The notes under the pieces are model-generated. The model was given only the letters and a program-made list of their open reading frames with translations. It had not been told where the DNA came from and did not search any database. From the NCBI RefSeq assembly GCF_056746865.1, contig NZ_CM163382.1: a stretch of 64,000 nucleotides of DNA, one strand, 5' to 3'. Every line of letters begins with the position of its first letter. The stretch's first letter is position 1. The position numbers were made by a program, and so were the translations under genes. This document shows positions 1-64,000 of this stretch, piece after piece.

Positions 1-511
1 TGCTGATGATTGCCGTGCCGTGCTGATCGTCGTGGAATACCGGAATATTCATCCGCTCGCGCAGTTTCTGTTCAATATAGAAACATTCTGGCGCTTTAAT
101 GTCTTCGAGGTTGATGCCGCCGAAGGTCGGTTCAAGCGCGGCGACGACTTCAATAAATTTGTCCGGGTCGAGTTCATCAACTTCAATGTCAAATACATCA
201 ATTCCGGCGAATTTCTTAAACAGAACGCCCTTGCCTTCCATCACCGGTTTGCCCGCCAGCGCGCCAATGTTGCCTAACCCCAGCACCGCCGTACCGTTAG
301 AGATCACCGCCACCAGGTTACCGCGCGCGGTATATTTGTAGGCTTTTAACGGGTCTTTTTCGATTTCAAGACAAGGTGCGGCAACGCCTGGTGAGTAGGC
401 CAGCGCCAGATCGCGCTGCGTTGCCAGAGGCTTGGTTGGAGAAACCTGGATTTTCCCTGGAACTGGAAATTCATGGAAATCAAGTGCACTTTGTTTTAAC
501 TGGTCATCCAT
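1..511 (-). CDS. maeB: NADP-dependent malic enzyme MaeB, N-terminal portion (gene continues beyond window start)
   Basis: Minus-strand ATG at 511-509 followed by [15 protein letters not shown]...; reverse translation of 1-60 reads ...[18 protein letters not shown]; frame open to position 1. Not in ORF track because it has no stop inside the window. Confidence 0.9.
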
Positions 512-799
512 TTGGTTGTTCCTTTCACGTAACGTTCACAAATAAAGTGTGTGGGCAACAGCCCCTGCCCACAACGTGGCGCACATTATTACCCTGCCGG
601 AGTCTACAGACTTTGAGCAAGTCCAAACTCTCACCATTAATATAATGTTTTGGTAATAATCCTATAACACTGATGTTACCTGCTTAATCCAGCAATACCA
701 TGCCTGTCTGCTATGCTTTTTTGATGCGTTTAGCGAAATTTCTCAGAAGTGTGAATTAACGCACTCATCTAACACTTTACTTTTCAAGGAGTATTTCCT

Positions 800-1750
800 A
801 TGAACGAGTTAGACGGCATCAAACAGTTCACCACTGTCGTGGCAGACAGCGGCGATATTGAGTCCATTCGCCATTATCATCCCCAGGATGCCACCACCAA
901 TCCTTCGCTGTTACTCAAGGCTGCCGGATTATCACAATATGAGCATTTAATAGACGATGCTATCGCCTGGGGTAAAAAAAATGGCAAGACCCAGGAACAA
1001 CAGGTGGTCGCAGCGTGTGACAAACTGGCGGTCAATTTCGGTGCTGAAATTCTCAAAATCGTACCCGGTCGCGTGTCAACAGAAGTTGATGCACGCCTCT
1101 CTTTTGATAAAGAAAAGAGTATTGAGAAGGCGCGCCATCTGGTGGACTTGTATCAGCAACAAGGCGTTGAGAAATCACGCATTCTGATCAAGCTGGCTTC
1201 GACCTGGGAAGGAATTCGCGCGGCAGAAGAGCTGGAAAAAGAAGGTATTAACTGCAACCTGACGCTGCTGTTTTCTTTTGCCCAGGCGCGGGCCTGTGCA
1301 GAAGCAGGCGTTTTTCTGATTTCGCCGTTTGTCGGGCGTATTTATGACTGGTATCAGGCACGCAAGCCGATGGACCCGTATGTGGTGGAAGAAGATCCGG
1401 GCGTTAAATCGGTGCGCAATATCTACGACTACTATAAGCAACACCACTATGAAACCATTGTGATGGGCGCGAGCTTCCGTCGCACCGAACAAATCCTCGC
1501 CTTAACCGGCTGCGATCGACTGACTATCGCACCGAATTTGCTGAAGGAGCTGCAGGAAAAAGTTTCGCCAGTGGTACGTAAATTAATCCCACCTTCTCAG
1601 ACTTTCCCACGCCCAGCTCCCATGAGCGAAGCGGAGTTCCGTTGGGAGCACAATCAGGATGCGATGGCGGTAGAAAAACTGTCTGAAGGCATTCGTCTGT
1701 TCGCCGTTGATCAACGCAAACTGGAAGATCTTCTTGCCGCCAAACTATAA
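800..1750 (+). CDS. talA: transaldolase A
   Basis: 316-aa ORF starting at ATG 800; sequence recognisable as transaldolase; length matches E. coli TalA. Confidence 0.95.
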
Positions 1751-1769
1751 ACCAGCCACGGAGTGTTAT

Positions 1770-3773
1770 ATGTCCCGAAAAGACCTTGCCAATGCGATTC
1801 GCGCACTCAGTATGGATGCGGTACAAAAAGCCAATTCTGGTCATCCCGGCGCGCCGATGGGCATGGCTGATATTGCCGAAGTGCTGTGGAACGATTTTCT
1901 TAAACATAACCCCACCGACCCAACCTGGTATGATCGCGACCGCTTTATTCTTTCCAACGGCCACGCGTCGATGCTGCTCTACAGTTTGCTACATCTGACC
2001 GGTTACGACCTGCCGCTGGAAGAACTGAAGAACTTCCGTCAGTTGCATTCAAAAACCCCAGGTCACCCGGAGATTGGCTATACGCCAGGTGTTGAAACCA
2101 CCACCGGTCCACTTGGACAAGGTTTGGCGAACGCCGTCGGACTGGCGATAGCAGAGCGTACACTGGCGGCGCAGTTTAACCAGCCGGATCATGAAATTGT
2201 CGATCACTTCACCTATGTGTTTATGGGCGACGGTTGCCTGATGGAAGGTATTTCCCACGAAGTCTGTTCGCTGGCGGGCACGCTGGGACTGGGCAAGCTG
2301 ATTGGTTTTTACGATCACAACGGTATTTCCATCGACGGTGAAACCGAAGGCTGGTTTACCGACGATACAGCAAAACGTTTTGAAGCCTATCACTGGCATG
2401 TGATCCATGAAATCGACGGTCACGATCCGCAGGCGGTGAAGAAAGCGATCCTTGAAGCGCAAAGCGTGAAAGATAAGCCGTCGCTGATTATCTGCCGCAC
2501 AGTAATTGGCTTTGGTTCGCCGAATAAAGCAGGTAAGGAAGAGGCGCACGGCGCACCGCTGGGGGAAGAAGAAGTGGCGCTGGCACGGCAAAAACTGGGC
2601 TGGCACCATCCGCCATTTGAGATCCCTAAAGAGATTTATCACGCCTGGGATGCCCGCGAAAAAGGCGAAAAAGCGCAGCAGAGCTGGAATGAGAAGTTTG
2701 CCGCCTATAAAAAGGCCCATCCGCAACTGGCAGAAGAGTTTACCCGTCGGATGAGCGGTGGTTTACCGAAGGACTGGGAGAAAACGACTCAGAAATATAT
2801 CAATGAATTACAGGCGAATCCGGCGAAAATCGCCACCCGTAAGGCTTCGCAAAATACGCTTAACGCTTATGGCCCCTTGCTACCGGAGCTGCTCGGCGGT
2901 TCGGCGGATCTGGCTCCCAGCAACCTGACCATCTGGAAAGGTTCTGTGTCGCTGAAGGAAGATCCGGCGGGCAACTACATTCACTACGGGGTGCGTGAAT
3001 TTGGCATGACCGCTATCGCCAACGGCATTGCGCACCACGGCGGCTTTGTGCCGTATACCGCGACGTTCCTGATGTTTGTTGAATACGCCCGTAACGCCGC
3101 GCGGATGGCGGCACTAATGAAAGCGCGGCAGATTATGGTTTATACCCACGACTCAATTGGTCTGGGCGAAGATGGTCCTACGCACCAGGCTGTTGAGCAA
3201 CTGGCCAGTCTGCGCTTAACGCCAAATTTCAGCACCTGGCGACCGTGCGATCAGGTGGAAGCAGCGGTGGGCTGGAAGCTGGCCGTTGAGCGCCACAACG
3301 GACCGACGGCACTGATCCTCTCCAGGCAGAATCTGGCCCAGGTGGAACGTACGCCGGATCAGGTTAAAGAGATTGCTCGTGGCGGTTATGTACTGAAAGA
3401 CAGCGGCGGTAAGCCAGATATTATTTTGATTGCCACCGGTTCAGAGATGGAAATCACCCTGCAAGCGGCAGAGAAATTAGCGGGAGAAGGTCGCAATGTA
3501 CGCGTAGTTTCCCTGCCCTCGACCGATATTTTCGACGCCCAGGATGAGGAATATCGGGAGTCGGTGTTGCCTTCTAACGTTGCGGCTCGCGTGGCGGTGG
3601 AAGCAGGCATCGCCGATTACTGGTACAAATATGTTGGTCTGAAAGGGGCAATTGTCGGGATGACCGGCTATGGGGAATCTGCTCCGGCAGATAAGCTGTT
3701 CCCGTTCTTTGGCTTTACCGCCGAGAATATTGTGGCAAAAGCGCATAAGGTGCTGGGAGTGAAAGGTGCCTGA
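1770..3773 (+). CDS. tktB: transketolase 2
   Basis: ORF 1707-3773; true start taken as ATG 1770 ([21 protein letters not shown]...), giving 667 aa; thiamine-diphosphate transketolase motifs. Confidence 0.95.
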
Positions 3774-52993: not shown

Positions 52994-53040
52994 GCGATGT
53001 CAGTAACTTCAAGCCTATGATTCGTGAGTATAATAAATAT

Positions 53041-53065
53041 CCTCCGGCATAGCCGGAGGTTTTTC
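53041..53065 (+). terminator. hairpin plus T-run downstream of yfgI (either the yfgI terminator or the detached right-end hairpin of IS200)
   Basis: CCTCCGG-catag-CCGGAGG followed by TTTTTC, 47 bp after the yfgI stop and 9 bp before IS2. Ambiguity explained in findings. Confidence 0.5.
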
Positions 53066-53068
53066 AAA

Positions 53069-53073
53069 TGCGC
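53069..53073. repeat. IS2 target-site duplication, left copy (TGCGC)
   Basis: 5-bp TGCGC immediately left of the IS2 left inverted repeat; identical pentamer immediately right of IS2. Confidence 0.8.
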
Positions 53074-53164
53074 TAGACTGGCCCCCTGAATCTCCAGACA
53101 ACCAATATCACTTAAATAAGTGATAGTCTTAATACTAGTTTTTAGACTAGTCATTGGAGAGCAG

Positions 53165-53530
53165 ATGATTGATGTCTTAGGACCGGAGAAACGCAGACGG
53201 CGTACTACACAGGAAAAGATCGCTATTGTTCAGCAGAGTTTTGAACCGGGAATGACGGTCTCCCTTGTTGCCCGGCAACACGGTGTGGCAGCCAGCCAGT
53301 TATTTCTCTGGCGCAAGCAATACCAGGAGGGAAGTCTTACTGCTGTGGCCGCAGGAGAGCAGGTCGTTCCTGCCTCTGAACTTGCTGCTGCCATGAAGCA
53401 GATTAAAGAACTCCAGCGCCTGCTCGGCAAAAAAACGATGGAAAATGAACTCCTTAAAGAAGCCGTTGAATACGGGCGTGCAAAAAAGTGGATAGCGCAC
53501 GCGCCCTTATTGCCCGGGGATGGGGAGTAA
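53165..53530 (+). CDS. insC: IS2 transposase OrfA (InsC; HTH DNA-binding component)
   Basis: ORF 53120-53530; start placed at ATG 53165 ([24 protein letters not shown]...), 121 aa. Confidence 0.9.
53482..53488 (+). other. IS2 programmed -1 ribosomal frameshift slippery site (A6G) in the insC/insD overlap
   Basis: AAAAAAG heptamer inside the 43-nt overlap of insC and insD; IS3-family OrfAB fusions are made by -1 frameshifting at such sites. Confidence 0.6.
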
Positions 53531-54393
53531 GCTTAGTCAGCCGTTGTCTCCGGGTGTCGCGTGCGCAGTTGCACGTCATTCTCAGACGAACCGATGACTG
53601 GAAAGATGGTCGCCGCAGCCGTCACTCAGATGATACGGATGTGCTTCTCCGTATACACCATGTTATCGGAGAGCTGCCCACGTATGGTTATCGTCGGGTA
53701 TGGGCGCTGCTTCGCAGACAGGCCGAACTTGATGGTATGCCTGCGATCAATGCCAAACGTGTTTACCGGATCATGCGCCAGAATGCGCTGTTGCTTGAGC
53801 GAAAAACCGCTGTACCGCCATCGAAACGGGCACATACTGGCAAAGTGGCCGTGAAAGAAAGCAATCAACGATGGTGCTCTGACGGGTTCGAGTTCCGCTG
53901 TGATAACGGAGAAAAACTGCGAGTCACGTTCGCGCTGGACTGCTGTGACCGTGAGGCACTGCACTGGGCAGTCACTACGGGCGGCTTCGACAGTGAAACA
54001 GTACAGGACGTAATGCTGGGAGCGGTGGAACGCCGCTTCGGCAACGAGCTTCCGGCGTCTCCAGTAGAGTGGCTGACGGATAATGGTTCATGCTACCGGG
54101 CTAATGAAACACGGCAGTTTGCCCGGATGTTGGGGCTTGAACCGAAGAACACGGCGGTGCGGAGTCCGGAGAGTAACGGCATAGCAGAGAGCTTCGTGAA
54201 AACGATAAAGCGTGACTACATCAGTATCATGCCTAAACCAGACGGGTTAACGGCAGCAAAGAACCTTGCAGAGGCGTTCGAGCATTATAACGAATGGCAT
54301 CCGCATAGTGCACTGGGTTATCGCTCGCCACGGGAATATCTACGGCAGCGGGCCAGTAATGGGTTAAGTGATAACAGGTGTCTGGAAATATAG
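53488..54393 (+). CDS. insD: IS2 transposase OrfB (InsD; DDE integrase-like catalytic component)
   Basis: 301-aa ORF ([23 protein letters not shown]...); rve-type integrase core. Confidence 0.9.
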
Positions 54394-54404
54394 GGGCAAA
54401 TCCA

Positions 54405-54409
54405 TGCGC
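54405..54409. repeat. IS2 target-site duplication, right copy (TGCGC)
   Basis: TGCGC immediately right of the IS2 right end. Confidence 0.8.
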
Positions 54410-54476
54410 CTATAAGGCTCTCTTACCAGCCGCGCCCTAACAGGCGCACACGATCTGACATTTGCATCCAACTTCG

Positions 54477-54935
54477 TTACTTACGGCCCGTAAACGGGCT
54501 GCCCGGATAGGGAATCGATAACTGCTCTCCCATTTTATCCTCTTCAAGCTGGTGCTTTATGTAATCCTGTATCTTCGCCGTGTTCTTACCCACTGTATCG
54601 ACGTAGTACCCTCTGCACCAGAACTCCCTGTTCCTGTATTTGAATTTCAAATCACCAAACTGCTCGTAAAGCATCAGACTGCTTTTCCCTTTCAGATATC
54701 CCATAAACCCGGATACGCTCATTTTAGGCGGGATCTCCACAAGCATATGGATATGATCTGCACAGCATTCAGCTTCCAGAATCCGTACGCTTTTCCACTC
54801 ACACAGCTTTCTCAAAATACTGCCTATTGCTCTACGCTTCTCTCTGTAGAACACCTGTCTTCGGTATTTTGGCGCAAAAACTATGTGATATTTACAGTTC
54901 CATCGGGTGTGCGCTAAGCTCTTTTCGTTCCCCAT
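54477..54935 (-). CDS. tnpA: IS200 transposase TnpA (Y1/HuH single-strand transposase)
   Basis: ORF 54477-54986; start placed at ATG 54935 preceded by GGGGG (MGNEKSLAHTRWNCKYHIVFAPKYRRQVFY...), 152 aa; HuH motif (HIHMLV) and catalytic Tyr region. Confidence 0.9.
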   Translation of the reverse strand: MGNEKSLAHTRWNCKYHIVFAPKYRRQVFYREKRRAIGSILRKLCEWKSVRILEAECCADHIHMLVEIPPKMSVSGFMGYLKGKSSLMLYEQFGDLKFKYRNREFWCRGYYVDTVGKNTAKIQDYIKHQLEEDKMGEQLSIPYPGSPFTGRK

Positions 54936-54940
54936 TGGGA

Positions 54941-55010
54941 CCCCCTTTTGATTTCTTGTTTGACACTTGCAGTTGCCAGACCGCAAGGTGTTTTAACAAA
55001 TCAAAAGGGG
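54941..55010 (-). promoter_or_regulatory. IS200 5'-UTR stem-loop that sequesters the tnpA ribosome-binding site
   Basis: CCCCTTTTGATTT (54941-54953) and AAATCAAAAGGGG (54998-55010) are exact reverse complements; the arm next to the ATG contains the Shine-Dalgarno sequence. Confidence 0.6.
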
Positions 55011-55045
55011 TTTTAATAACTGGCTCAAAGCTGAAAGCTTTCCGG

Positions 55046-55068
55046 AACCCCCAGCCTAGCTGGGGGTT
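55046..55068. other. IS200 left-end hairpin (palindrome near the element end)
   Basis: aaCCCCCAGC-cta-GCTGGGGGtt, 23 nt, about 10 bp inside the inferred IS200 left boundary. Confidence 0.5.
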
Positions 55069-55074
55069 TTCTGT

Positions 55075-55108
55075 GCACAAAAAACCCTCTGTAGTAACAG
55101 AGGGTTTT
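55075..55108 (-). terminator. rho-independent terminator of the prophage lysis cassette (minus strand)
   Basis: Minus strand reads AAAACCCTCTG-ttacta-CAGAGGGTTTTTTGTG: 11-bp stem plus T6, 127 bp downstream of the Rz stop and abutting the IS200 end. Confidence 0.6.
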
Positions 55109-55234
55109 GTTCATTCATAGTGCAGGGTCAAATCATTCCCACTCAATTGTTTACGACAATCATAACCAATTGAGTGATAACATTTTTCCAAAACTTAATT
55201 TTTCTAGTACCGTTTTATATACCGTCACCGGAAA

Positions 55235-55732
55235 TCAGTGCCACGATTTTTGCTTCTTCAGTGAATCGTATTGCTGTTCGCAGGATTCTCCTGCAATCCG
55301 ATACTTTTCAGCCTCAGCTGCTGTTGCGTTGTAAACTCGATTGCTTTCTTCAAGCATGTCGGCGAGCACACCGATGACCTTGCTGGCTGGCGTGCCAGTG
55401 GGGAAAGATCCGGTATAGTGTTCGGCGAGTCGCTTGGTTTTGTCAAGCTCGGCGCGCAGGCTGTCAGCAGCGGCATTAGCATGCTCAGCATCAACACGCG
55501 CCACATCGATACGGGATTGTGCTTCACGTTCAATTTGTGTTTTCTCCTGATCACGTTGTGACCTGGCCTTATCATCAGCCTGTTTCTGATCTTCCTGTGC
55601 CTGCGCATACCCGGCATCGTACTGGCGACTGCCGTGTATATTCCAGGCAACCACTCCGACGGTAAACAGAGCAGCAAGAATCACCACGATAAGCAGTTGT
55701 TTCCAATATGCTTTTACGAATGCCCAGATCAT
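55235..55732 (-). CDS. prophage i-spanin (Rz-like inner-membrane spanin)
   Basis: 165-aa ORF with one N-terminal TM helix then a charged coiled-coil body; start overlaps the endolysin stop (ATGA); last gene of the lysis cassette. Confidence 0.7.
55258..55506 (-). CDS. prophage o-spanin (Rz1-like outer-membrane lipoprotein) embedded in the +1 frame of the Rz-like gene
   Basis: ORF 55258-55677 in an alternate frame inside Rz; from ATG 55506 it encodes [17 protein letters not shown]... with lipobox LTA-C followed by a proline-rich short mature region; start codon choice tentative. Confidence 0.6.
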   Translation of the reverse strand: MWRVLMLSMLMPLLTACAPSLTKPSDSPNTIPDLSPLARQPARSSVCSPTCLKKAIEFTTQQQLRLKSIGLQENPANSNTIH

Positions 55733-56358
55733 ATAGCCAGCACCTTACTGGCAGTGACGTACCGCGCGCGCCGGTCGTCGATGCCGTTCCGGCCACCATT
55801 GATAATCAGAGTTACACGTGCAATATCACCGGTATACTTCATGCATCCTTTGCTGGCAAAGAACCACGCCGCGCTACGAGCCGCGTATTCGTCCTGCGCC
55901 AGCAGTTCAGGATTCTCCAGCAAGTCCACTTTCAAGCCGTTTCCGCAGTCACGATAGTTATTCAAACCGGTAATCTGGATAAGTCCGCGACCTCGGTAAT
56001 TCCAGCCATCGCCGGGGGCATTGTTCCCCATGCGTTTGCTGTACACCAGATTGGCAATCGCTCTCTGGCGCTCAGGTGGCAATGGTGGTTCACCAGCACG
56101 GCGCCCCAATGCGTTGGCCTGTCCCTGAGTGAGACGCCCAGCCCGAACGAAGTTAGCCAGTCCGCTGACGCTGTAGTTGAAATTTTCCTGCAACCGGGTG
56201 AAACCTCCAGACTCATGCCCGACCTGAGCAATAAACATTGCCTGATCTTCTGGTTTGCTGATACCAAACTCTTTCATCGCAGAAGTTATATGCGAGAACC
56301 AGCGTGCGGCAAGCGCCTCGCTAATACCAGCAGCTCGCTGGAATTGTTTAATCTCCAT
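55729..56358 (-). CDS. prophage endolysin, glycoside hydrolase family 19 (chitinase-like lysozyme)
   Basis: ORF 55729-56523; start placed at ATG 56358 preceded by GAGGT ([21 protein letters not shown]...), 209 aa; GH19/COG3179-like motifs ([21 protein letters not shown]). Confidence 0.8.
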
Positions 56359-56656
56359 GTTTAGACCTCGATACTTTGAAAATTTGAACGACGTTACCGC
56401 GCGTTTTAATAACCGCAGCGAGCATGACAGCGTTGATAATGACCTCAGATAAATCCACAGCCATTGGCGTGCGGAACCAGATTGCATAGGCAACACGAAC
56501 CGGAATACTGGCCGCAGCAACAATCAGGAAATAAGCAAGCCACCCCCCCCATCTTCGATGTTGAGATCCGTTACGCCGGAATGTGACAACACGAATTGCT
56601 ATGCCAGTACAAATAACTGCATTGGTGATAAGTAAAAACAGGTCATGCGTTACCAT
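56348..56656 (-). CDS. small membrane protein in lysis cassette (putative holin or antiholin, 2-3 TM)
   Basis: 102-aa hydrophobic ORF directly upstream of the endolysin gene and overlapping it by 11 nt; function assigned by position only. Confidence 0.5.
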
Positions 56657-57059
56657 CGTCTTTTCTCCCCGGAATTAACTCGCGTGGATTATCGGAACGG
56701 TGATAGAGCCAGATACCAATTCGCACTGCGACAATTGCTGATACGAATGCGCCAGCAGAGAAAACAATCCCTTTCTCGAACGAGTCCTGCGTGATGGTAG
56801 GGATCAGGCTGGCTATGCCGATAAGAATTGATGCTGCTGGTTTGTAAAAAAGAAGGCCGCAGAGAAAGCTAAGCATCGACAAAAGCACACGACGACGAAT
56901 GGGATACTCTACCGCAGAGGTAACAAAAATTACCGCTCCAGCCAAAGACCCCAAAGCAACCTCGGGAGGAACTCCTGCTATCACCGCCGCCAGAGAAGTC
57001 ATGCTAAGCCACTGATTCAAAGAATCACTGGTTGTCTGAATTGACATGATAAACACCAT
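56643..57059 (-). CDS. putative holin (multi-TM small membrane protein), first gene of lysis cassette
   Basis: 138-aa ORF with 3-4 predicted TM segments and a basic C-terminal tail; two Met codons within the first five (M1, M5); overlaps the next gene by 14 nt. Confidence 0.55.
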   Translation of the reverse strand: MVFIMSIQTTSDSLNQWLSMTSLAAVIAGVPPEVALGSLAGAVIFVTSAVEYPIRRRVLLSMLSFLCGLLFYKPAASILIGIASLIPTITQDSFEKGIVFSAGAFVSAIVAVRIGIWLYHRSDNPRELIPGRKDDGNA

Positions 57060-57187
57060 TTATTTCACATAAACAACTCCATTAAATAAATGTTTATCAT
57101 ACACAATAAACCATTTATGGATAATTATTACTCGTGATTTTTATGATTATTCGCGCATTTTTCTATCATTTTTATCCAGTGTGCCGT

Positions 57188-57211
57188 AAAACCACGTCCT
57201 TAAGGGCGTGG
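57188..57211 (-). terminator. hairpin terminator downstream of the tail fiber gene
   Basis: Minus strand: CCACGCCC-ttaa-GGACGTGG followed by TTTTAC; about 160 bp after the tail fiber stop. Confidence 0.5.
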
Positions 57212-57236
57212 ATGATGTCAACTGATGATGTCAACT
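57211..57236. repeat. perfect tandem direct repeat 2 x 13 bp (GATGATGTCAACT) in the tail fiber - holin intergenic region
   Basis: gatgatgtcaact gatgatgtcaact read directly from the sequence at 57211-57223 and 57224-57236. Confidence 0.7.
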
Positions 57237-57372
57237 ATTGGCTGGCTTTGACTGATATTGCAGGAGTTGTTGGATAAGATTTAAGTGACCGTCAAAGCGG
57301 TCACTTATGAGAAAAGGAAGTTAGACAAAGTGGCAAACAGGCTCATTGATGGCTACGTCAATGACCAAGGTT

Positions 57373-59775
57373 TCATTCAGACTCCAGCAACTCTATCCTG
57401 GCGAGAAGCGCTTCATATTTATCAAGTAATCGAGAGTAGTTCCTTCGTTGCATTGCAGCTTCCATTACCAACATTTCTTCATAACGAATGCCGTAACGGG
57501 AACCAGCTTCTATAGCAGGAGTGATTACCTCACCGGTTTCATCATCTATGACGGCAGGAGTGTCACCCCATTCATCATAACAGATGAAACCAAAGCGATG
57601 AGCATCAAGACCATGCCTTTCGAATGCCTCCACGTACCGTTGAGCAATGGCGCCGAAGTGCCAGCGGGCGCCATCAGCGCCTTTTTCTTTAATCCTATCC
57701 AGATACTTATACTGGACTAGCTGAACCTCTTCTGCGGCATCGAGAATGGCATCAGTCATTAGTAATGGGTCTGATTTGCAAATGGCATCTGACGTGATAG
57801 TGAACGCCGTTTGAGTGAATCCACCAGACCACGGAAACGAACTTGCCCCGCAAGGATAGGTATTTGCCGTGGCAGGACGTATTTGCTTCACAGCAAATAC
57901 GTGCGACGTCATTTCTGCTGTACCAGAACCCGTAACGCCGGGATCTCCACCAGAGACACGTAAAATCCCTGTAGGGACAGATGAGTCCGTCGATGAATAA
58001 AAGCGAATCTGCTGTGCTTCTGCAACACCAGGGTTACATAGCTTAATAGCTTTAGTTGTGAACGCATTAGTATCCGTATCAAATATCCAGTATCTGTTGT
58101 TTGAACCACCATCTATAATAACGTTCGCAAGAGATACACCAACTCGCTGTATATTAGAAATATTGTTAGCATTAGTACCAGCAGTTAACTGAATACCCCT
58201 TGTGCAATTATTTACACGCGAGTTACTAATAGTATTATTAGCAGCAAATCTAGTGCCAGCGGTATTTCCTGTCAGGAGAGTATGCGTAGTGTCCTTACTG
58301 AAGCCTGTCAATAACACCTCATTATTAGTGAACGTACCGTACTGAGCACATGATTTAAAACCGATATAAGGTGTGGTTAAATCCTCAGGAATACCATTCC
58401 ATACCATACAAAAGTTATCTGTAATTACACTATGGTTTCCTCCATTGTTAGACAAATCACCCAACTCTACAGCACTTATGGAAGTATTGAAGTGGTTATT
58501 TGTAACCTGGAACAGGTTACCAACATTGTTTTCAGAAACAACTCCGCGGCGACCAGCAATGATATGGTTACCGAAAACCACAACACCTTCGGTATCGTCA
58601 TGCGCGTACATGAAGGTGTCGAAGTTCTGATAAGAACCATTGACAATATTGATATTCTTTGTTGAGTACAGGTCGAATATTTTACCCATTCGATATGCTG
58701 GTACAGATGTTCCTCCACCAGTTACGTTAACGCCGTCAAATACACACTGACCAGCTCTGCTTAGCTTAAAGACAGTATCAAAAGAGGATTGAGTACCAGC
58801 ATCATTTGACACATCCAGGTCACGAACGATAAGTTGTCGGGCGTATTCGATTCCCCCTGTCCCTAAAAACGTAAGCGCAGTACCCTGAAGTTGCCCGGTA
58901 GCTTTTATCGTGAAATTACGTAAACCAACAGGTTTTCTTACTACAGTCGTACCCGAGTTATCAATGATAAGACCATATCCAGCAGCAAATTTTATTCCGC
59001 ATGTAGCCATGCTTACGCCAAAAACATCACTATAAAAATTAGTTACTGAGATGTCGCTTGAGCAGTTGTATATACGACGAAGCTTAATATCTAGACCAGT
59101 TTCCTTTGCTGCAGTAAAGGCATTGATCAGTGCCAAGGTATCATCAGCATCACCTCCAACAGCGCCAAAATCCTCAGGAGTGAGTGATTCCCTCATTTTA
59201 TCCTGGAACGTTCGGTATACTGCCCCATAACCATACTGAATAAACCAACCAAAACCACCAACAACCCCGGCGATTGCAGCATCGACATAATTACGCATTG
59301 AGCGATTATTTACAGCGTCCTGCTCAAGTGATGGATCTGCAAGGTTAGAAATTCTGTTTTGCTTTGCATCGTAATATTTTGCAAGCAAAGATGGTTTCAT
59401 CAATGCACGTCTGAACCACCCAAAACATTGCTGGATCAGCATCGTCAGGTAGTCAAAGGCATCTTCATGCACTTCGGGAAAAAACTTTCCCTGATTGCGA
59501 AGGTCTGTCTCCTGTACTACATCAAGCACACGATCTATCGTAATTCGCCATCCAGTAGCAAGCGGAGACGGAAGAACCACAGAACCGCCACTATAAGTGC
59601 CCGCCCCAGTTACCGTATAACCGGTATCCAGAACCAATTCTGTTACGTTCCCGTTCAGGTCAGACACCTGAACAACCAGGTCTGATTTTCTGAAAATTCG
59701 AAAAGTATACGGAAACGATGTCGTAACGCCGTTACCTGTGTATTCGTTGTGGTCAACTTCGGTTGAGACCGTCAT
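57373..59775 (-). CDS. prophage tail fiber/tailspike (N-terminal virion-attachment domain, central beta-helix-like domain, C-terminal intramolecular chaperone domain)
   Basis: 800-aa ORF preceded by GGAG; N-terminus has the tail-fiber motif ...NRISNLADPSLEQDAVN... (compare T7 gp17 RIVNLANAVDDRDAV); middle is Gly/Asn/Thr-rich repeat typical of beta-helix tailspikes; C-terminal ~130 aa resemble S74-type chaperone domains. Confidence 0.8.
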   Translation of the reverse strand: MTVSTEVDHNEYTGNGVTTSFPYTFRIFRKSDLVVQVSDLNGNVTELVLDTGYTVTGAGTYSGGSVVLPSPLATGWRITIDRVLDVVQETDLRNQGKFFPEVHEDAFDYLTMLIQQCFGWFRRALMKPSLLAKYYDAKQNRISNLADPSLEQDAVNNRSMRNYVDAAIAGVVGGFGWFIQYGYGAVYRTFQDKMRESLTPEDFGAVGGDADDTLALINAFTAAKETGLDIKLRRIYNCSSDISVTNFYSDVFGVSMATCGIKFAAGYGLIIDNSGTTVVRKPVGLRNFTIKATGQLQGTALTFLGTGGIEYARQLIVRDLDVSNDAGTQSSFDTVFKLSRAGQCVFDGVNVTGGGTSVPAYRMGKIFDLYSTKNINIVNGSYQNFDTFMYAHDDTEGVVVFGNHIIAGRRGVVSENNVGNLFQVTNNHFNTSISAVELGDLSNNGGNHSVITDNFCMVWNGIPEDLTTPYIGFKSCAQYGTFTNNEVLLTGFSKDTTHTLLTGNTAGTRFAANNTISNSRVNNCTRGIQLTAGTNANNISNIQRVGVSLANVIIDGGSNNRYWIFDTDTNAFTTKAIKLCNPGVAEAQQIRFYSSTDSSVPTGILRVSGGDPGVTGSGTAEMTSHVFAVKQIRPATANTYPCGASSFPWSGGFTQTAFTITSDAICKSDPLLMTDAILDAAEEVQLVQYKYLDRIKEKGADGARWHFGAIAQRYVEAFERHGLDAHRFGFICYDEWGDTPAVIDDETGEVITPAIEAGSRYGIRYEEMLVMEAAMQRRNYSRLLDKYEALLARIELLESE

Positions 59776-59860
59776 GTTAAATCTCCAGATAGTCGCAGCA
59801 CCCGTTGCGCCGCATATCTGGTTATTCTATTACCTGAAAAACCACATATGGATAGAAAGG

Positions 59861-59876
59861 CTGTAAATACGAATAG
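59861..59876. promoter_or_regulatory. weaker second LexA-like box (CTGT-N8-ATAG)
   Basis: CTGTaaatacgaATAG, one mismatch in the distal ACAG half-site, about 70 bp upstream of the strong box. Confidence 0.3.
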
Positions 59877-59931
59877 ATATTACCTTTCAGGTAATTTGCA
59901 AAACGTGCTGGATAGCAAACAAATTATTTGC

Positions 59932-59951
59932 TACTGTATAAATATACAGTT
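59932..59951 (+). promoter_or_regulatory. LexA (SOS) box immediately upstream of the small plus-strand ORF
   Basis: tACTGTATAAATATACAGtt matches the LexA consensus TACTGTATATATATACAGTA at 18/20 with CTGT-N8-ACAG intact; ends 6 bp before ATG 59957. Confidence 0.7.
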
Positions 59952-59956
59952 ATTGC

Positions 59957-60229
59957 ATGGAGAAGATTAAGATGCAGCAGTATCACTATCCACTGGAAGA
60001 CGGATTTACCGAAAGGATTCACACGCCGGGAGGCGTCAGGTCACTGGTGGAGGGATCGCACTTGATGAAATTACTCCGGGATCTCGATAAGGATGGATTT
60101 AATGTCGATGGCCCACTTGCCGAACTGACTGCACTGATTAACTACGTCACCAGCTCACAGATGTCTATGCGGGATCTGCAAACACATCTCGACTATTGTG
60201 CCGAACAATTACGAAAACAAACCCGGTAA
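59957..60229 (+). CDS. small SOS-box-associated prophage protein of unknown function (90 aa, or 85 aa from ATG 59972 which has the better GGAGA Shine-Dalgarno)
   Basis: ORF in track; soluble, charged, no TM segment; LexA box overlaps its promoter region; convergent with the 98-aa membrane protein gene. Confidence 0.55.
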   Translation: MEKIKMQQYHYPLEDGFTERIHTPGGVRSLVEGSHLMKLLRDLDKDGFNVDGPLAELTALINYVTSSQMSMRDLQTHLDYCAEQLRKQTR

Positions 60230-60235
60230 ATTTAA

Positions 60236-60273
60236 AGGCCGCAAGAGCGGCCTGTGACATGTCACGCTCTTTT
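60236..60273. terminator. bidirectional terminator between the convergent small genes
   Basis: GGCCGC-aaga-GCGGCC hairpin then GTGACATGTCAC palindrome and CTCTTTTTC; T-rich on both strands (tttaaattt on the minus side). Confidence 0.55.
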
Positions 60274-60558
60274 TCTGAATGATAGCCATTCGAAAAATGA
60301 TGACATTCCACCGCAGACAATAGCAAAGATGATCCCACCAAAGAAGAGAAGGCCAGCCTGCCACCACTCCCACCGCCATACATCCACAGCGCCAACCATA
60401 CCAACAATCGCTCCAACAAATGGAATATAGCTCACGATGAAAGCAATGGGGGCTGCAATTATCCAGTGCAATCCCCACCATGATTCAAGCCCAGCCATAA
60501 TTGCTGCCAACTGAAAAAGACCAACGACGATATAAACAATGAATCCTATAGCTTGCAT
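60262..60558 (-). CDS. small 3-TM inner-membrane protein of unknown function (moron; candidate superinfection-exclusion or conversion protein)
   Basis: 98-aa ORF with AGGTGA Shine-Dalgarno; three hydrophobic helices, Trp-rich loop (VDVWRWEWWQAG), basic C-terminus FRKRA. Confidence 0.6.
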   Translation of the reverse strand: MQAIGFIVYIVVGLFQLAAIMAGLESWWGLHWIIAAPIAFIVSYIPFVGAIVGMVGAVDVWRWEWWQAGLLFFGGIIFAIVCGGMSSFFEWLSFRKRA

Positions 60559-60570
60559 GTAGTCACCTAT

Positions 60571-60744
60571 TTACCCAGTAAAAATCAGAGGCCTCCCCTC
60601 AATAAGGCTTGCAACAAGAACTATTCCCTGCACAACAAAGATGAACCAGCAAATAGCTTGAGTCTGAGGGTTAAGAAAATATTTGTAGCGGTCAATAAAT
60701 AACAACCCACCAGAAATTATCACACTCAAAATAATTAAAAACAC
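60571..60744 (-). CDS. possible 57-aa two-TM membrane peptide (GTG start), translationally coupled to the upstream virion protein gene
   Basis: Not in ORF track (under 60 aa). GTG 60744 is preceded by AAGGAAG overlapping the 824-aa gene stop; product (M)FLIILSVIISGGLLFIDRYKYFLNPQTQAICWFIFVVQGIVLVASLIEGRPLIFTG; same frame as the upstream gene. Confidence 0.35.
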   Translation of the reverse strand: MFLIILSVIISGGLLFIDRYKYFLNPQTQAICWFIFVVQGIVLVASLIEGRPLIFTG

Positions 60745-60753
60745 AACACTTCC

Positions 60754-63228
60754 TTATTGCGGAGTGACATCCTGAGGTCGCCACCAGTATGTCTGGTTAA
60801 ACTCTTTCTTCGAACGTTGCTCCATTTTACGCAAATAGCCTGGTGAAAAATACTCCTGCATCTGGTTAAAGATCATATGATCGAGAGCCGCCTTTAAGTA
60901 CCAGAGATTCGCACCTGGCATCAAACCTTTCCCCAGCTTCACCAGATCACCACCAGTCTGCTCACTCTTCCCTTCCACAGCATTTAACGGTATGCCCTGA
61001 GCAATCTTCACTACGTCATCAACCAGACCAGCTACCGGGCCAAGCATCGACGCCAGCGCGCCGCTTCCGTACCTAGTGTGATCTGACAATAAAAAGTCAC
61101 CGTAAAGGCCAAGACCACCACCTTTCAGTAGAGCACCAAGCCAAAATTTAGCAGCATCTTCTCCTGTCATCTCGCGAGGATTACGACCAGACGCAAGGTC
61201 GTTAAGTTGCTGCGACAAAGCGCCAAGAATGGTCGTACTGGCAATAAACGTCGCAATATATGCCGCACGCCCACCAGCAGACGGCATACCCATAGCGCGT
61301 GACCAGTGACGCATAACCACCGAGATAGGGAACGATTTAAACAGGAAAACACTTCTCGTTAATTCACCTTTCCATGTTCCACGCTGAATACCAGAACCGG
61401 TTATCAGTTGCTCACGTGCTCCCGGTGTAATAACAGCCATATCAACTTCTTCAGTTACGGCACCGAGCAGTTTACGCATTGCCTCAAATTTCACGCGTTC
61501 AGGCTCACCAAGATGTTTAACTGCTGAATCAGGGATACGCATAATGCTTTCCGGTGTCAGCATCGTATTATTGCCGTTCCCCCAGTCCTCCTGTTGCGCC
61601 AGCTTCCATACGCTCCAGTCTGTGTCAGTAATCCCTTTGCTTTTCAGGATACGAAAATCAGAATCATCGAGGCTACGAAGGTCTGGTGTCCGTGACACTA
61701 CTTCTCCCAGGCTTCCCATCATGGTTACGCCATAGGCGCGCTTGTGCGCATCTGACCATGCTGTAAGCCCACTGGCACGCATTACCGCCGTTGCAGCCCA
61801 ACGAGACACAGACGGCCCCATATTATCCATCGCCCAGCGGTTAACGCTGCCAAGTAGAGATTCCATCGCCAGACCAGCGCGGCGCGCCCGCGCAAGTTCT
61901 GTACGGTTCGTTGGGTCCATAGCTTCAAGCTGGTTGCGGAATAACTGGTTCATTGGAAGGTTGGTAACCTTCGCAGACAGATACATGGTTCCAAGATCAG
62001 AGAACGATGACAGCAACGCGGATCCGAGTCTGCTGGCAACCAGCCAGTTGCGGATATTGTCAGACCATCGCGCGATGTGCGGATTCGCTACAGGCTGTGT
62101 CTTTCCGGAAATAAAATTGTACAGATTCTCTGTGTTGTTCGCCAGCCGCTCGACTTTACCGGTTTTACTCGGGTTAGCTGTTGCCGTTTCTGCCTTCACC
62201 TGATCAAGAAGAGAGCGGAAAACATGATCGGGGTTTGGGCCATATGTTTCCACCAGTGCAATATCTTTACTGATACCTTCAAGGTGACCGACCATGATTT
62301 CCCATAGAGAGCGATCGCCATAAAGTTGCTGATATTGCAGATAGGAATCTGCATCTTTGAAATGTATCTGTCGTGATGCATTACCACGGTTAGCACGTGC
62401 GCCGGAAATTCGCATTCCGGTATCAGTAAGCTTATTCAGCCCACCAGTAGCGATCGTGTTATAAGCCTCTCCAAGAAATGCAGACAACTCGGCATCGTTC
62501 ATCAGTTGTCCATCGGCTCGGGTATAATATTTGCGATCCAGCTTACCTATAACATCGCTAACCCATTTATCTTTTGATACCGCCCCAACCTTTTCCATAG
62601 AATGATGTTGAGGGATCCCCCAGTTTTCGAGATAGCCAATGTCCCCACCAGCATCATTAAACCGGCGGCGCAGCAGCTCTGTAACTTCTCTCCACGCCTT
62701 AGCACCTTTTCTTGCTTTAGCATTGCCAGTATTTTGCCCCCGCATTTCATATACCAGGTCACGTACGCCCGCTTCATCTTCAAACAGACCAAAAAAGCGA
62801 GGATCAACTGCTTCGAATGCCTCCTGCAATTGACTCAATGCATAATCACGGGTGGCTTTTGTTCTGGATTCAACAGAGAGGAAATTCGATTTACCGTCTG
62901 CATTAAAAGCAATAGTACGGTTAAGAGCGCCAAGTTTCCCATCAGCCCCTTGATAGCTATTGATAAATTTATCCAATCTCTGACGTGCGGCTATAGTGAG
63001 GGCCACACGACGTTTCTTTAATGCCGCTTCTCGCTGTAATTCTTCAGATGCCAATTGTGCTGCACGATACAACCGTTCTGATTCGGAAAGTTGTCGCCAC
63101 GACATCGGGTCATCACGAGCAATGGAGCGCATATTTCGATAAATGCGGTCTTCAATGTTCTGTATTTCTCGCGCCGTTAACGTGCGCTGCGCCGCCTGCT
63201 GGACCGCTTGTATACATTCCTGTCTCAT
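60754..63228 (-). CDS. large prophage virion protein, function unknown (putative internal virion / DNA-ejection protein by position)
   Basis: 824-aa ORF; N-terminal coiled-coil, Gly-rich C-terminal region; directly upstream of the tail fiber module; no catalytic motif recognised. Confidence 0.6.
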   Translation of the reverse strand: MRQECIQAVQQAAQRTLTAREIQNIEDRIYRNMRSIARDDPMSWRQLSESERLYRAAQLASEELQREAALKKRRVALTIAARQRLDKFINSYQGADGKLGALNRTIAFNADGKSNFLSVESRTKATRDYALSQLQEAFEAVDPRFFGLFEDEAGVRDLVYEMRGQNTGNAKARKGAKAWREVTELLRRRFNDAGGDIGYLENWGIPQHHSMEKVGAVSKDKWVSDVIGKLDRKYYTRADGQLMNDAELSAFLGEAYNTIATGGLNKLTDTGMRISGARANRGNASRQIHFKDADSYLQYQQLYGDRSLWEIMVGHLEGISKDIALVETYGPNPDHVFRSLLDQVKAETATANPSKTGKVERLANNTENLYNFISGKTQPVANPHIARWSDNIRNWLVASRLGSALLSSFSDLGTMYLSAKVTNLPMNQLFRNQLEAMDPTNRTELARARRAGLAMESLLGSVNRWAMDNMGPSVSRWAATAVMRASGLTAWSDAHKRAYGVTMMGSLGEVVSRTPDLRSLDDSDFRILKSKGITDTDWSVWKLAQQEDWGNGNNTMLTPESIMRIPDSAVKHLGEPERVKFEAMRKLLGAVTEEVDMAVITPGAREQLITGSGIQRGTWKGELTRSVFLFKSFPISVVMRHWSRAMGMPSAGGRAAYIATFIASTTILGALSQQLNDLASGRNPREMTGEDAAKFWLGALLKGGGLGLYGDFLLSDHTRYGSGALASMLGPVAGLVDDVVKIAQGIPLNAVEGKSEQTGGDLVKLGKGLMPGANLWYLKAALDHMIFNQMQEYFSPGYLRKMEQRSKKEFNQTYWWRPQDVTPQ

Positions 63229-63233
63229 TTAAT

Positions 63234-64000
63234 TTAACCTCTCAAGAAACACGCCACAGCAACATCAAACAGGCTGGAATCCTGTATTGCCTGCTCACTT
63301 TCCCTGTTCGCTTCATCCAGTACTTCACGCGCACTGCGCGATTGTGGATTACCATCATCATCCAGCACGGTGATTATCATGTCAGGTGATTCAAGCAGCG
63401 AGTCTTCAGCTATGCGCAGATCAATATCTCCTGCCTGATCTGACATCATTTTTTGTTCTGCCTGTTGCAATATTTTATCAGGCTCAAAAGGAGCTACTTC
63501 GTCTGGCGTCCTGACCTCTGCTGTTTTATAGAATGAAACAGCCTGAGCATTAAGTTCACTTTCTGCCTGCTGTCTCCGAGCCAGTTCTGCTCGAGCTTCA
63601 AAAAACTGACCGCCAGGCTCGTGCGGTGCCAACGCGTTACGGGAAAATTCCAGGCGTTCTTGTGCCTGCCGGATTCGTTGATCAATATCGCGAAGTCTGG
63701 CCTGTTTATCTGATCGAGCACGAGACAAAGCTTTACCGCTACCGGTTGGCTCTTCTGCAAGAATTTGTGCACGCTGTTCAGTGAGATTTTCAATAATTCG
63801 TTGGCTATTAGCGATTTCAGACTGGTAAACCTGTCTATCTCCACGCGGCAAAAGCTGCGCGGCCTGTTCTTCAAGCAACCGATTTTCTATAGCGCGCGCC
63901 GTTACTCCATCATCTACAGATGACAGAGCCTCATTAACTGCCTGAGACAGCAGACTCTTGCGCCCAGGAATTTCACTGAAAGATGCAGACTCAACAATGC
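63234..64000 (-). CDS. prophage coiled-coil virion/ejection-associated protein, C-terminal part (5' end beyond window)
   Basis: ORF track gives 63234-63878, but the same frame stays open to the window end (...SEIPGRKSLLSQAVNEALSSVDDGVTARAIENRLLEEQAAQ...); Gln/Glu/Arg-rich coiled-coil. Confidence 0.55.
   Translation of the reverse strand, partial: IVESASFSEIPGRKSLLSQAVNEALSSVDDGVTARAIENRLLEEQAAQLLPRGDRQVYQSEIANSQRIIENLTEQRAQILAEEPTGSGKALSRARSDKQARLRDIDQRIRQAQERLEFSRNALAPHEPGGQFFEARAELARRQQAESELNAQAVSFYKTAEVRTPDEVAPFEPDKILQQAEQKMMSDQAGDIDLRIAEDSLLESPDMIITVLDDDGNPQSRSAREVLDEANRESEQAIQDSSLFDVAVACFLRG

Follow-up and report, generated by a model that had tools for sequence, protein, structure and literature searches.

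The stretch at 55235-57059 of the window (the whole 64,000-nt stretch of contig NZ_CM163382.1 that was analysed) carries a complete holin/endolysin/Rz lysis cassette with an Rz1 gene embedded in Rz, and it very probably represents the lysis module of a Uetakevirus (epsilon15/phiV10-like podovirus) prophage at the 3' end of guaA. Four co-directional ORFs lie on the minus strand, with successive overlaps of 14, 11 and 4 nt, and a fifth ORF is found in the +1 frame inside Rz, as had been proposed in a first-pass annotation made from the sequence alone. The G+C content of the cassette is 51%. Four of the cassette proteins scored above the Pfam gathering score, all five products matched PHROG lysis families, and the PDB match of the endolysin agrees with these assignments. 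Given these matches, the cassette ORFs are not a product of chance. A NCBIfam search with the five proteins gave no meaningful match. Two antisense ORFs on the plus strand, at 55708-56364 (218 aa) and 55634-55957 (107 aa), had no family match and were taken as spurious. As a holin-endolysin-spanin module, the cassette is a textbook case from a known phage genus; it is common in E. coli and has already been annotated. Small corrections to its annotation, on points where automatic annotation frequently errs, concern the length of the first gene product (134 instead of 138 aa), the TTG start and extent of the o-spanin, and the guaA terminator.

The same five genes stand in the same order in phiV10 (PhiV10p27-p30a), epsilon15, TL-2011b, PAS61 and the Enterobacter phage Tyrion. 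DNA identity to phiV10, TL-2011b and PAS61 is 87-94%, and to Tyrion 79%. Each of the four annotated proteins equals its counterpart from the isolated phage vB_EcoP_PAS61 in length, at 85-99% identity, and relative to this plaque-forming phage the cassette is intact. Both phiV10 and PAS61 encode proteins of 134, 102 and 209 aa as found here, the endolysin of Tyrion has 208 aa, the Rz proteins of the relatives range from 160 to 166 aa, and Rz1 of phiV10 has 91 aa. The relatives also carry the cassette next to attP or the att core and use the same guaA integration site. Gene order, gene lengths, DNA identity and the adjoining 17-bp guaA core all agree with a Uetakevirus module. The copy examined here differs from these relatives by an extra upstream ATG in the first gene and by the absence of an O-antigen acetylase gene before the cassette. 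At least 80% of the cassette was found in 232 of 5,426 complete E. coli genomes.

The sequence of the 17-bp att core has been published (PMC9782041). In the window, the reverse complement of attgagtgggaatgatt has one exact match, 55131-55147 (unstranded), which marks the prophage/host junction. It consists of the last codons and the stop codon of guaA, and the same sequence is present at the guaA stop in K-12. The gene order in phiV10 is Rz, terminator and integrase, and the att core falls between the first two; therefore, the cassette always lies at one end of the integrated prophage. Just beyond the core, at 55081-55108 on the minus strand, is an intrinsic terminator, a hairpin with a perfect 12-bp stem followed by UUUUUU. 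The 60-nt stretch holding the hairpin folds at -21.8 kcal/mol (z = -5.2), and its sequence is identical to the K-12 DNA between yfgI and guaA. phiV10 itself carries a similar copy, which is annotated as a terminator. The element in the window is the native guaA terminator of the host, which is predicted now to end the lysis transcript as well. A consensus scan of the minus strand did not call the terminator at 55081-55108 although the hairpin and the U-tract are plain in folding; the scan rule may have counted A-U pairs into the stem and left too few U in the tail. We also considered this hairpin as an IS200 feature and ruled this out, since it is host DNA identical to K-12. A separate IS200 hairpin lies at about 55038-55058, inside a match to STnc490.

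On the other side of the cassette, the intergenic stretch that separates the first lysis gene from the tail-fibre gene (57060-57372, minus strand) is AT-rich and contains a hairpin at 57281-57305. Its counterpart in phiV10, Tyrion and PAS61 is occupied by the O-antigen acetylase gene. A consensus scan of the coding strand detected no sigma-70 promoter in 57060-57372, and the region is a possible candidate for the promoter of the cassette. The first-pass annotation had credited the cassette with its own AT-rich upstream region and a strong terminator. The G+C contents (36% against 51%) and the strength of the hairpin bear this out, except that the terminator belongs to guaA of the host.

The third gene of the cassette (55729-56358, minus strand) encodes a putative soluble endolysin of 209 aa with the chitinase fold of family GH19. 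It matched PF00182 (Glyco_hydro_19) with 38.2 bits against a cut-off of 25.5 and the PHROG family phrog_181 'endolysin' at 1.9e-92, in line with the GH19 chitinase-like enzyme originally proposed, and it is 99% identical to the PAS61 endolysin. Comparison with PDB 4OK7, the GH19 endolysin of Salmonella phage SPN1S, gave a near full-length alignment over residues 1-208 (E=4.4e-116), in which the glutamate-containing motifs HESGG and LQEN are identical. These glutamates are presumably the catalytic pair of GH19 enzymes, and the acidic catalytic residues of the endolysin are predicted to be retained. The SPN1S enzyme comes from another phage and another host and differs by scattered substitutions, and the copy here is known from its sequence alone.

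Some phages use a different route, in which a pinholin is paired with a SAR endolysin that is exported by Sec and activated by membrane depolarisation instead of being released through large holes. The presence of two small membrane proteins in the cassette, as in some pinholin systems, would be compatible with this. The N-terminus of the endolysin, however, is hydrophilic and carries neither a signal nor a SAR sequence. Its maximal hydropathy over 17 residues is 0.58, compared with 2-3 for the true transmembrane segments encoded by the neighbouring genes. The hydropathy of the endolysin effectively refutes the pinholin route, to which we give next to no probability.

The endolysin gene is preceded by genes for two small membrane proteins. 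The first of these (56643-57047, minus strand; 134 aa from the conserved start) matched PF16931 (Phage_holin_8; 45.2 bits against a cut-off of 26.4) and phrog_198 'holin' (2.8e-40), and its hydropathy profile suggests three to four hydrophobic helices and a charged C-terminal tail. The second (56348-56656, minus strand; 102 aa) matched PF05449 (Phage_holin_3_7; 94.4 bits against a cut-off of 25.4) and phrog_217 'holin' (1.6e-35), with hydrophobic stretches at residues 4-26, 37-61 and 64-85 and a basic C-terminal tail. Both proteins have the features of holins, being small proteins with membrane segments, a charged tail, an endolysin neighbour and a family match above the cut-off.

The ORF of the first protein is open to 57059, which would give 138 aa (M1-V-F-I-M5), in this lineage only, where a C-to-T change creates the extra upstream ATG. 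At this position, ACG is found in 8 of 9 distinct relatives compared and GTG in the other one. Nearly all the relatives compared keep Met5 together with its GGTGG Shine-Dalgarno-like box, and the gene product is of 134 aa in Tyrion as it is in phiV10 and PAS61. Start conservation thus points to Met5 as the conserved start of the holin-like protein, giving 134 aa. The two Met codons noted within the first five residues raise the idea of two functional starts, which does not hold as the upstream ATG is absent from all nine relatives. A dual-start holin/antiholin motif of the lambda type was ruled out, since the upstream ATG is lineage-specific, the MVFI extension adds no charged residue and the first ATG overlaps the GGTGG box of the conserved start.

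The identity of the hole-forming protein is an issue that concerns the phage genus as a whole and is not special to this locus. The literature search found no experimental paper on these holin-like proteins or on a member of either family, and because of this the assignment of holin and antiholin follows annotation convention only. We consider the 102-aa PF05449 protein most likely to be the hole-forming holin, and the PF16931 protein may be a second holin, an antiholin or a holin modulator. The first-pass annotation had these roles the other way round, with the 138-aa product as putative holin and the 102-aa protein as possible antiholin. Such an arrangement would fit the position of the PF16931 gene at the start of the cassette, where holin genes are frequently found, and PGAP labels its product 'putative holin'; the PHROG label 'holin' falls on both proteins. 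Against it, the 102-aa protein is the one named 'holin' in the RefSeq records of phiV10 and Tyrion and in the deposited annotation of PAS61, and the first protein is called only 'membrane protein' or 'hypothetical protein' in these records. Annotation of the Burkholderia P2-like phages KS5, KS14 and KL3, which have the same gene order of putative antiholin (113-124 aa), DUF754 holin (88-106 aa), endolysin and Rz/Rz1, likewise designates the DUF754 protein as the holin and the upstream protein as the putative antiholin (PMC3091744). These phages differ from the present cassette in that their endolysin is of another type with a peptidoglycan-binding domain, their context is that of a myovirus, and Rz1, listed in two of the three phages, overlaps Rz instead of being embedded in it. 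The supposed dual start is also not conserved. All these counterpoints are non-experimental, and we regard the exchange of roles as a possible but doubtful alternative to the 102-aa protein being the holin.

The last gene of the cassette (55235-55732, minus strand) encodes an Rz-like, DUF2514 protein of 165 aa, which matched PF10721 (89.5 bits) and phrog_312 'Rz-like spanin' (7.5e-53). Its hydropathy peaks at 3.08 within residues 4-34, with no later peak, which indicates a single N-terminal transmembrane helix; the remainder is a charged, hydrophilic periplasmic domain with a single cysteine at position 151. These features suggest an i-spanin. The putative o-spanin, a Rz1-like precursor of 91 aa (55258-55533, minus strand), is encoded wholly inside Rz in the +1 frame, with an offset of 199 nt and an extent of 0.40-0.95 of the Rz length, and matched phrog_11621 'Rz-like spanin' (6.7e-25). 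Among embedded o-spanins, about 70% have their start between 0.4 and 0.5 and their end between 0.9 and 1.0 of the i-spanin length (Kongari et al. 2018, PMC6139136). In the same survey, the i- and o-spanins of epsilon15, phiV10, TL-2011b and SPN1S were grouped together in the Bcep176 family. The embedded o-spanin is left unannotated by PGAP in E. coli genomes.

The start of the embedded frame was reassigned. The first-pass annotation had begun the lipoprotein at an ATG (MWRV, 55506), an internal codon that strain 90-3040 and Tyrion lack. A TTG at 55533, 27 nt upstream of the ATG and 10 nt after AGGAG, is conserved together with its AGGAG, and phiV10 annotates a Rz1 product of 91 aa. The conserved Rz1 start is thereby predicted to be the TTG at 55533, and the proposed embedded +1-frame lipoprotein itself stands, with its family match, conserved frame and lipobox. 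The lipobox prediction suggested as a check on this ORF gave LTAC with the predicted lipidated cysteine at residue 26, followed by AP (no Asp at +2). By inspection, the signal fits PROSITE PS00013, with a positive n-region, a hydrophobic core, a lipobox and a cysteine, and phiV10p30a is annotated with the same lipidation site. The mature protein would comprise 66 aa with 8 prolines and with cysteines at positions 31 and 35. The Rz/Rz1 allele of the cassette is of the PAS61/Tyrion type, and the +1 frame of PAS61 encodes a near-identical Rz1. Against the phiV10 type, identity is only 48% for Rz and 33% for Rz1. Both alleles nevertheless keep the embedded frame, the lipobox, the start 10 nt after AGGAG, the CxPTC motif in Rz1 and one cysteine near the C-terminus of Rz, and with these the periplasmic cysteines that disulfides between the two proteins would require.

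The cassette had originally been described as an intact lysis module retained in a truncated, defective prophage, and as a latent host-killing function that could be co-opted for the release of vesicles or toxins. In such a case, the cassette would be a lethal remnant, which the host may use to release vesicles, toxins or bacteriocins, much as P. aeruginosa does with its pyocin lysis cassette. The intactness of the cassette is compatible with this, and IS200 and IS2 within 150 bp of it are signs of local IS activity. Moreover, strain 90-3040 carries a prophage of the same type in which structural genes are disrupted by IS elements or frameshifted and the lysis genes are kept, and GH19 lysins of cryptic prophages are reported to serve in this way in Pseudomonas (PMC12329726). 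However, the end of the prophage at the cassette is a normal att junction, and the IS block lies beyond the guaA terminator, on its host side and outside the prophage. The prophage DNA at 55079-64000 (8.9 kb) matches a 38.5-kb contig (L017), which carries much more prophage, collinearly and at 100% identity, and the prophage continues to base 64000, the end of the window, and past it. In addition, no cargo toxin or host regulator adjoins the cassette, and plaque-forming phages carry the same cassette. Nothing within the 64-kb window shows truncation or co-option, and the att junction and the collinear contig speak against the former claim. We found no evidence of co-option for vesicle or toxin release, which is speculation, and judge the remnant reading improbable. 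A narrower version, in which the prophage has decayed beyond the window and selection has retained the cassette as a lysis device under host control, with IS200/IS2 or the 138-aa isoform perhaps altering its expression, seems more improbable still, and no positive evidence for a selected device of this kind was found. The yfgI-IS200::IS2-Rz arrangement was not found by the junction query in complete E. coli genomes, exact-protein matches of the 824-aa protein and the tail fibre gave identical prophage segments but none with the same IS arrangement, and the exact-match scan of GTDB representative genomes did not find the IS200/terminator junction.

As part of a Uetakevirus prophage, the cassette would carry out the canonical three-step lysis of Gram-negative hosts, in which the inner membrane, the cell wall and the outer membrane are breached in turn. 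In a lysogen, the prophage repressor probably keeps the module silent. Overexpression of the repressor in the related phage ZX5 lowered the transcripts of holin and endolysin by >99.9% (PMC9782041). After induction, late in the lytic cycle, both small membrane proteins would build up in the inner membrane until one of them, most likely the 102-aa PF05449 protein, triggers large holes. The 134-aa PF16931 protein, probably translationally coupled to it, may act as a co-holin or as an antiholin that times the event. The GH19 endolysin, which has no export signal, would then leave through the holes and cut the glycan strands of peptidoglycan. Finally, the two spanins would join through disulfides into a complex across the periplasm, with the Rz-like i-spanin fixed to the inner membrane through its N-terminal helix and the Rz1-like o-spanin, the product of the +1 frame within Rz, fixed to the outer membrane through its lipidated Cys26. 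After loss of the wall, this complex would destroy the outer membrane. The lysis transcript would end at the guaA terminator of the host just past the att core.

This three-step logic, the soluble endolysin and an o-spanin embedded in the +1 frame are shared with the S/R/Rz/Rz1 module of lambda (PMC6139136). The two modules differ in that their holin families are unrelated, and the endolysin here has a GH19 fold whereas that of lambda is a transglycosylase. Two separate holin-like genes are present here in place of the single dual-start gene of lambda, and the predicted mature o-spanin is longer, with 66 aa compared with 40 aa for lambda Rz1 (PMC6139136).

ORF listing and translation placed the lysis genes on the minus strand at 55235-57059, and the coordinates and description in the first-pass annotation were accurate. 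The cassette consists of a first gene, listed as a 138-aa ORF beginning MVFIMSIQ (56643-57059), a 102-aa ORF (56348-56656), a 209-aa ORF beginning MEIKQF that encodes the endolysin (55729-56358) and the 165-aa Rz ORF (55235-55732); neighbors share 14, 11 and 4 nt in that order. In Pfam, the four proteins matched PF16931 Phage_holin_8 (45.2 bits against a gathering score of 26.4), PF05449 Phage_holin_3_7 (94.4 against 25.4), PF00182 Glyco_hydro_19 (38.2 against 25.5) and PF10721 DUF2514 (89.5 against 26), respectively. PHROGs assigned all five products, including the ORF embedded in Rz, to lysis families: holin for the first and 102-aa proteins (phrog_198 and phrog_217), endolysin for the third (phrog_181), and Rz-like spanin for both Rz (phrog_312) and the embedded ORF (phrog_11621, E=6.7e-25). 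By hydropathy, the first protein has 3-4 hydrophobic helices and a charged tail, the 102-aa protein has three hydrophobic stretches and a basic tail, and Rz has one N-terminal helix (peak 3.08). Residues 1-208 of the endolysin align with the solved Salmonella phage SPN1S endolysin (PDB 4OK7, E=4.4e-116). Hydropathy revealed no hydrophobic segment in the endolysin (maximum 0.58), which rules out a SAR endolysin and indicates a soluble, holin-dependent enzyme. Two plus-strand ORFs opposite the endolysin and Rz genes (55708-56364, 218 aa, and 55634-55957, 107 aa) had no match in a family search and were taken as spurious.

The cassette is a member of an already known and annotated module of the phage genus Uetakevirus. 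The annotated gene order is the same in phiV10, TL-2011b, vB_EcoP_PAS61 and Enterobacter phage Tyrion, which match the 2.1-kb cassette region at 87%, 91%, 94% and 79.5%, respectively. Phage PAS61 came from cow faeces; its four annotated proteins equal those of the cassette in length and are 85%, 98%, 99% and 97% identical from the first gene to Rz, and no stops or frameshifts were found in the four cassette proteins by comparison with PAS61. The spanins of epsilon15, phiV10, TL-2011b and SPN1S have been grouped in the Bcep176 family (Kongari et al. 2018, PMC6139136). Among 5,426 complete E. coli genomes, 232 contain at least 80% of the cassette query. The copy in strain A_5 has 99.1% identity and is located at the end of what looks like a full prophage. 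All the defining features tested were found except a lambda-type dual start, and this family does not include that motif.

In the first gene, two Met codons fall within the first five residues, and the dual-start motif was considered. The second (57047) is conserved in every relative compared and nearly always follows, at a distance of 4 nt, a Shine-Dalgarno-like GGTGG box, which is GGTGT in the window. The upstream ATG adds only the residues MVFI, overlaps this box, and is replaced by ACG in eight of nine distinct relatives and by GTG in the other. The motif was rejected on these grounds, and the conserved product is 134 aa, as in RefSeq. The RefSeq phiV10, RefSeq Tyrion and PAS61 records name the 102-aa protein holin and the first protein "membrane protein" or "hypothetical protein". 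Annotation of the same arrangement in Burkholderia P2-like phages makes the DUF754 protein the holin and its upstream neighbor a putative antiholin (PMC3091744). No experiments on which of the two acts as holin or antiholin were found in the literature searched.

Within the Rz gene, an open +1 frame runs from 55677 to 55258 and includes the lipoprotein sequence reported in the first-pass annotation. The start codon of this nested Rz1 gene needs revision. The Met codon proposed as its start is missing in E. coli strain 90-3040 (Ile) and Tyrion (Leu). All relatives compared have a start codon 27 nt further 5', in every case with AGGAG 10 nt before it; the codon is ATG in the phiV10 allele and TTG in the allele that the window shares with PAS61 and Tyrion. 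The precursor from this start is 91 aa, the annotated length of phiV10p30a, with the predicted lipidated Cys at residue 26; the predicted mature form is 66 aa long and contains 8 Pro, with Cys at 31 and 35. The only Cys in Rz is at position 151. Both alleles retain the Rz and Rz1 cysteines at an identity of no more than 48% for Rz and 33% for Rz1, which strongly supports a genuine nested gene. The two sharply different alleles, with a 165-aa or 160-aa Rz, were seen in window 55235-55600 and loci L003 (phiV10), L005, L007, L009, L012 and L018, and are exchanged between otherwise similar cassettes: phiV10-type DNA similarity stops at about 55590-55600 and returns at about 55245, a neat mosaic boundary across which both reading frames stay functional.

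The strong terminator attributed to the cassette does exist, but it is the bacterial guaA terminator. The att core of phiV10, epsilon15 and ZX5 is attgagtgggaatgatt (PMC9782041). The window has a single copy, at 55131-55147, 87 nt past the Rz stop. In K-12 this core makes up the final four codons of guaA plus its stop codon, and the hairpin AAAACCCTCTGT-AGTA-ACAGAGGGTTTT comes next. Window 55081-55130 is host sequence identical to K-12; the 60-nt stretch with this hairpin folds at -21.8 kcal/mol (z = -5.2), with UUUUUU after the stem on the minus strand. Integration at the att core has therefore placed a host terminator behind the lysis genes. The host genes ppk, ppx, pdeF, yfgG, yfgH and yfgI lie upstream of the cassette region. 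A hairpin is also present on the attP integrase side in phiV10 (L003 1424-1456) and at the equivalent position in Tyrion (L004, alignment A1), with a stem nearly identical to that of the guaA terminator and a different loop; the phiV10 annotation lists it as a terminator. In a lysogen, this phage hairpin would sit behind guaA and replace the displaced terminator. At 55140-55176, a 17-nt inverted repeat with 88% complementarity and a gap of 3 nt overlaps the att core at its phage-side edge. It could serve as a core-binding site for the integrase or form another hairpin after Rz.

The prophage had been described as truncated, with a retained lysis cassette that could be co-opted. The phiV10 map runs from Rz through the att core and the terminator to the integrase, so the lysis module necessarily lies at one extremity of the integrated prophage, and truncation cannot be read from this terminal position. 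Over 8,922 nt, window 55079-64000 shows 100% identity to L017, a metagenomic contig of 38.5 kb; its identity to contigs L013 and L015, in which the gene order goes on into the usual virion genes, is 99.8%. The prophage runs past the window end with no sign of decay within the window, and no support for co-option was found in the window. The decayed state envisaged is exemplified by the guaA prophage of the same kind in strain 90-3040 (L002 39452-44154), in which an IS3-family insertion splits a large virion gene and gp10 is frameshifted while the lysis cassette is intact. In the window, the insertion sequences (about 53032-55080) are on the host side past the terminator, between yfgI and the hairpin. 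They comprise an IS200 with TnpA at 54477-54935 (minus strand, PF01797) and a 5' UTR that matches Rfam STnc490 at 54945-55068; an IS2 (about 53074-54404) interrupts this IS200 close to the right end. Other E. coli chromosomes and plasmids carry the same IS200::IS2 composite as one unit, and IS200 adjoins Rz at the same site in contigs L018 and L019.

Every component of the canonical three-step lysis pathway is present and intact. Holin-type proteins would build up in the inner membrane and then trigger; the GH19 endolysin, a soluble enzyme, would cross the holes and break down peptidoglycan; and the Rz/Rz1 complex, a periplasm-spanning link, would remove the outer membrane. The region upstream of the cassette is AT-rich (36% G+C), as had been described, and a consensus scan of its coding strand found no sigma-70 promoter. 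In the related phage ZX5, overexpression of the repressor lowered holin and endolysin transcripts by more than 99.9% (PMC9782041), which points to phage-controlled late expression. A stable 10-bp hairpin (57281-57305) lies 68 nt past the tail-fibre stop, in a 56-nt stretch that folds at -14.9 kcal/mol (z = -6.6); the hairpin lacks a U-tract on either strand. An imperfect hairpin seen by eye at 57191-57212, closer to the lysis genes, is followed by UUUU. The two might separate tail-fibre and lysis transcription. The tail fibre (57373-59775, minus strand, 800 aa) carries a C-terminal Peptidase_S74 chaperone domain. At least two different phage backbones are joined to the identical fibre and the lysis cassette: one has 824-, 600- and 837-aa proteins, as in the window, and the other has SLT-domain 905-aa and 1004-aa proteins with P22_AR_N and Arc genes (L016, L018, L020 and L021).
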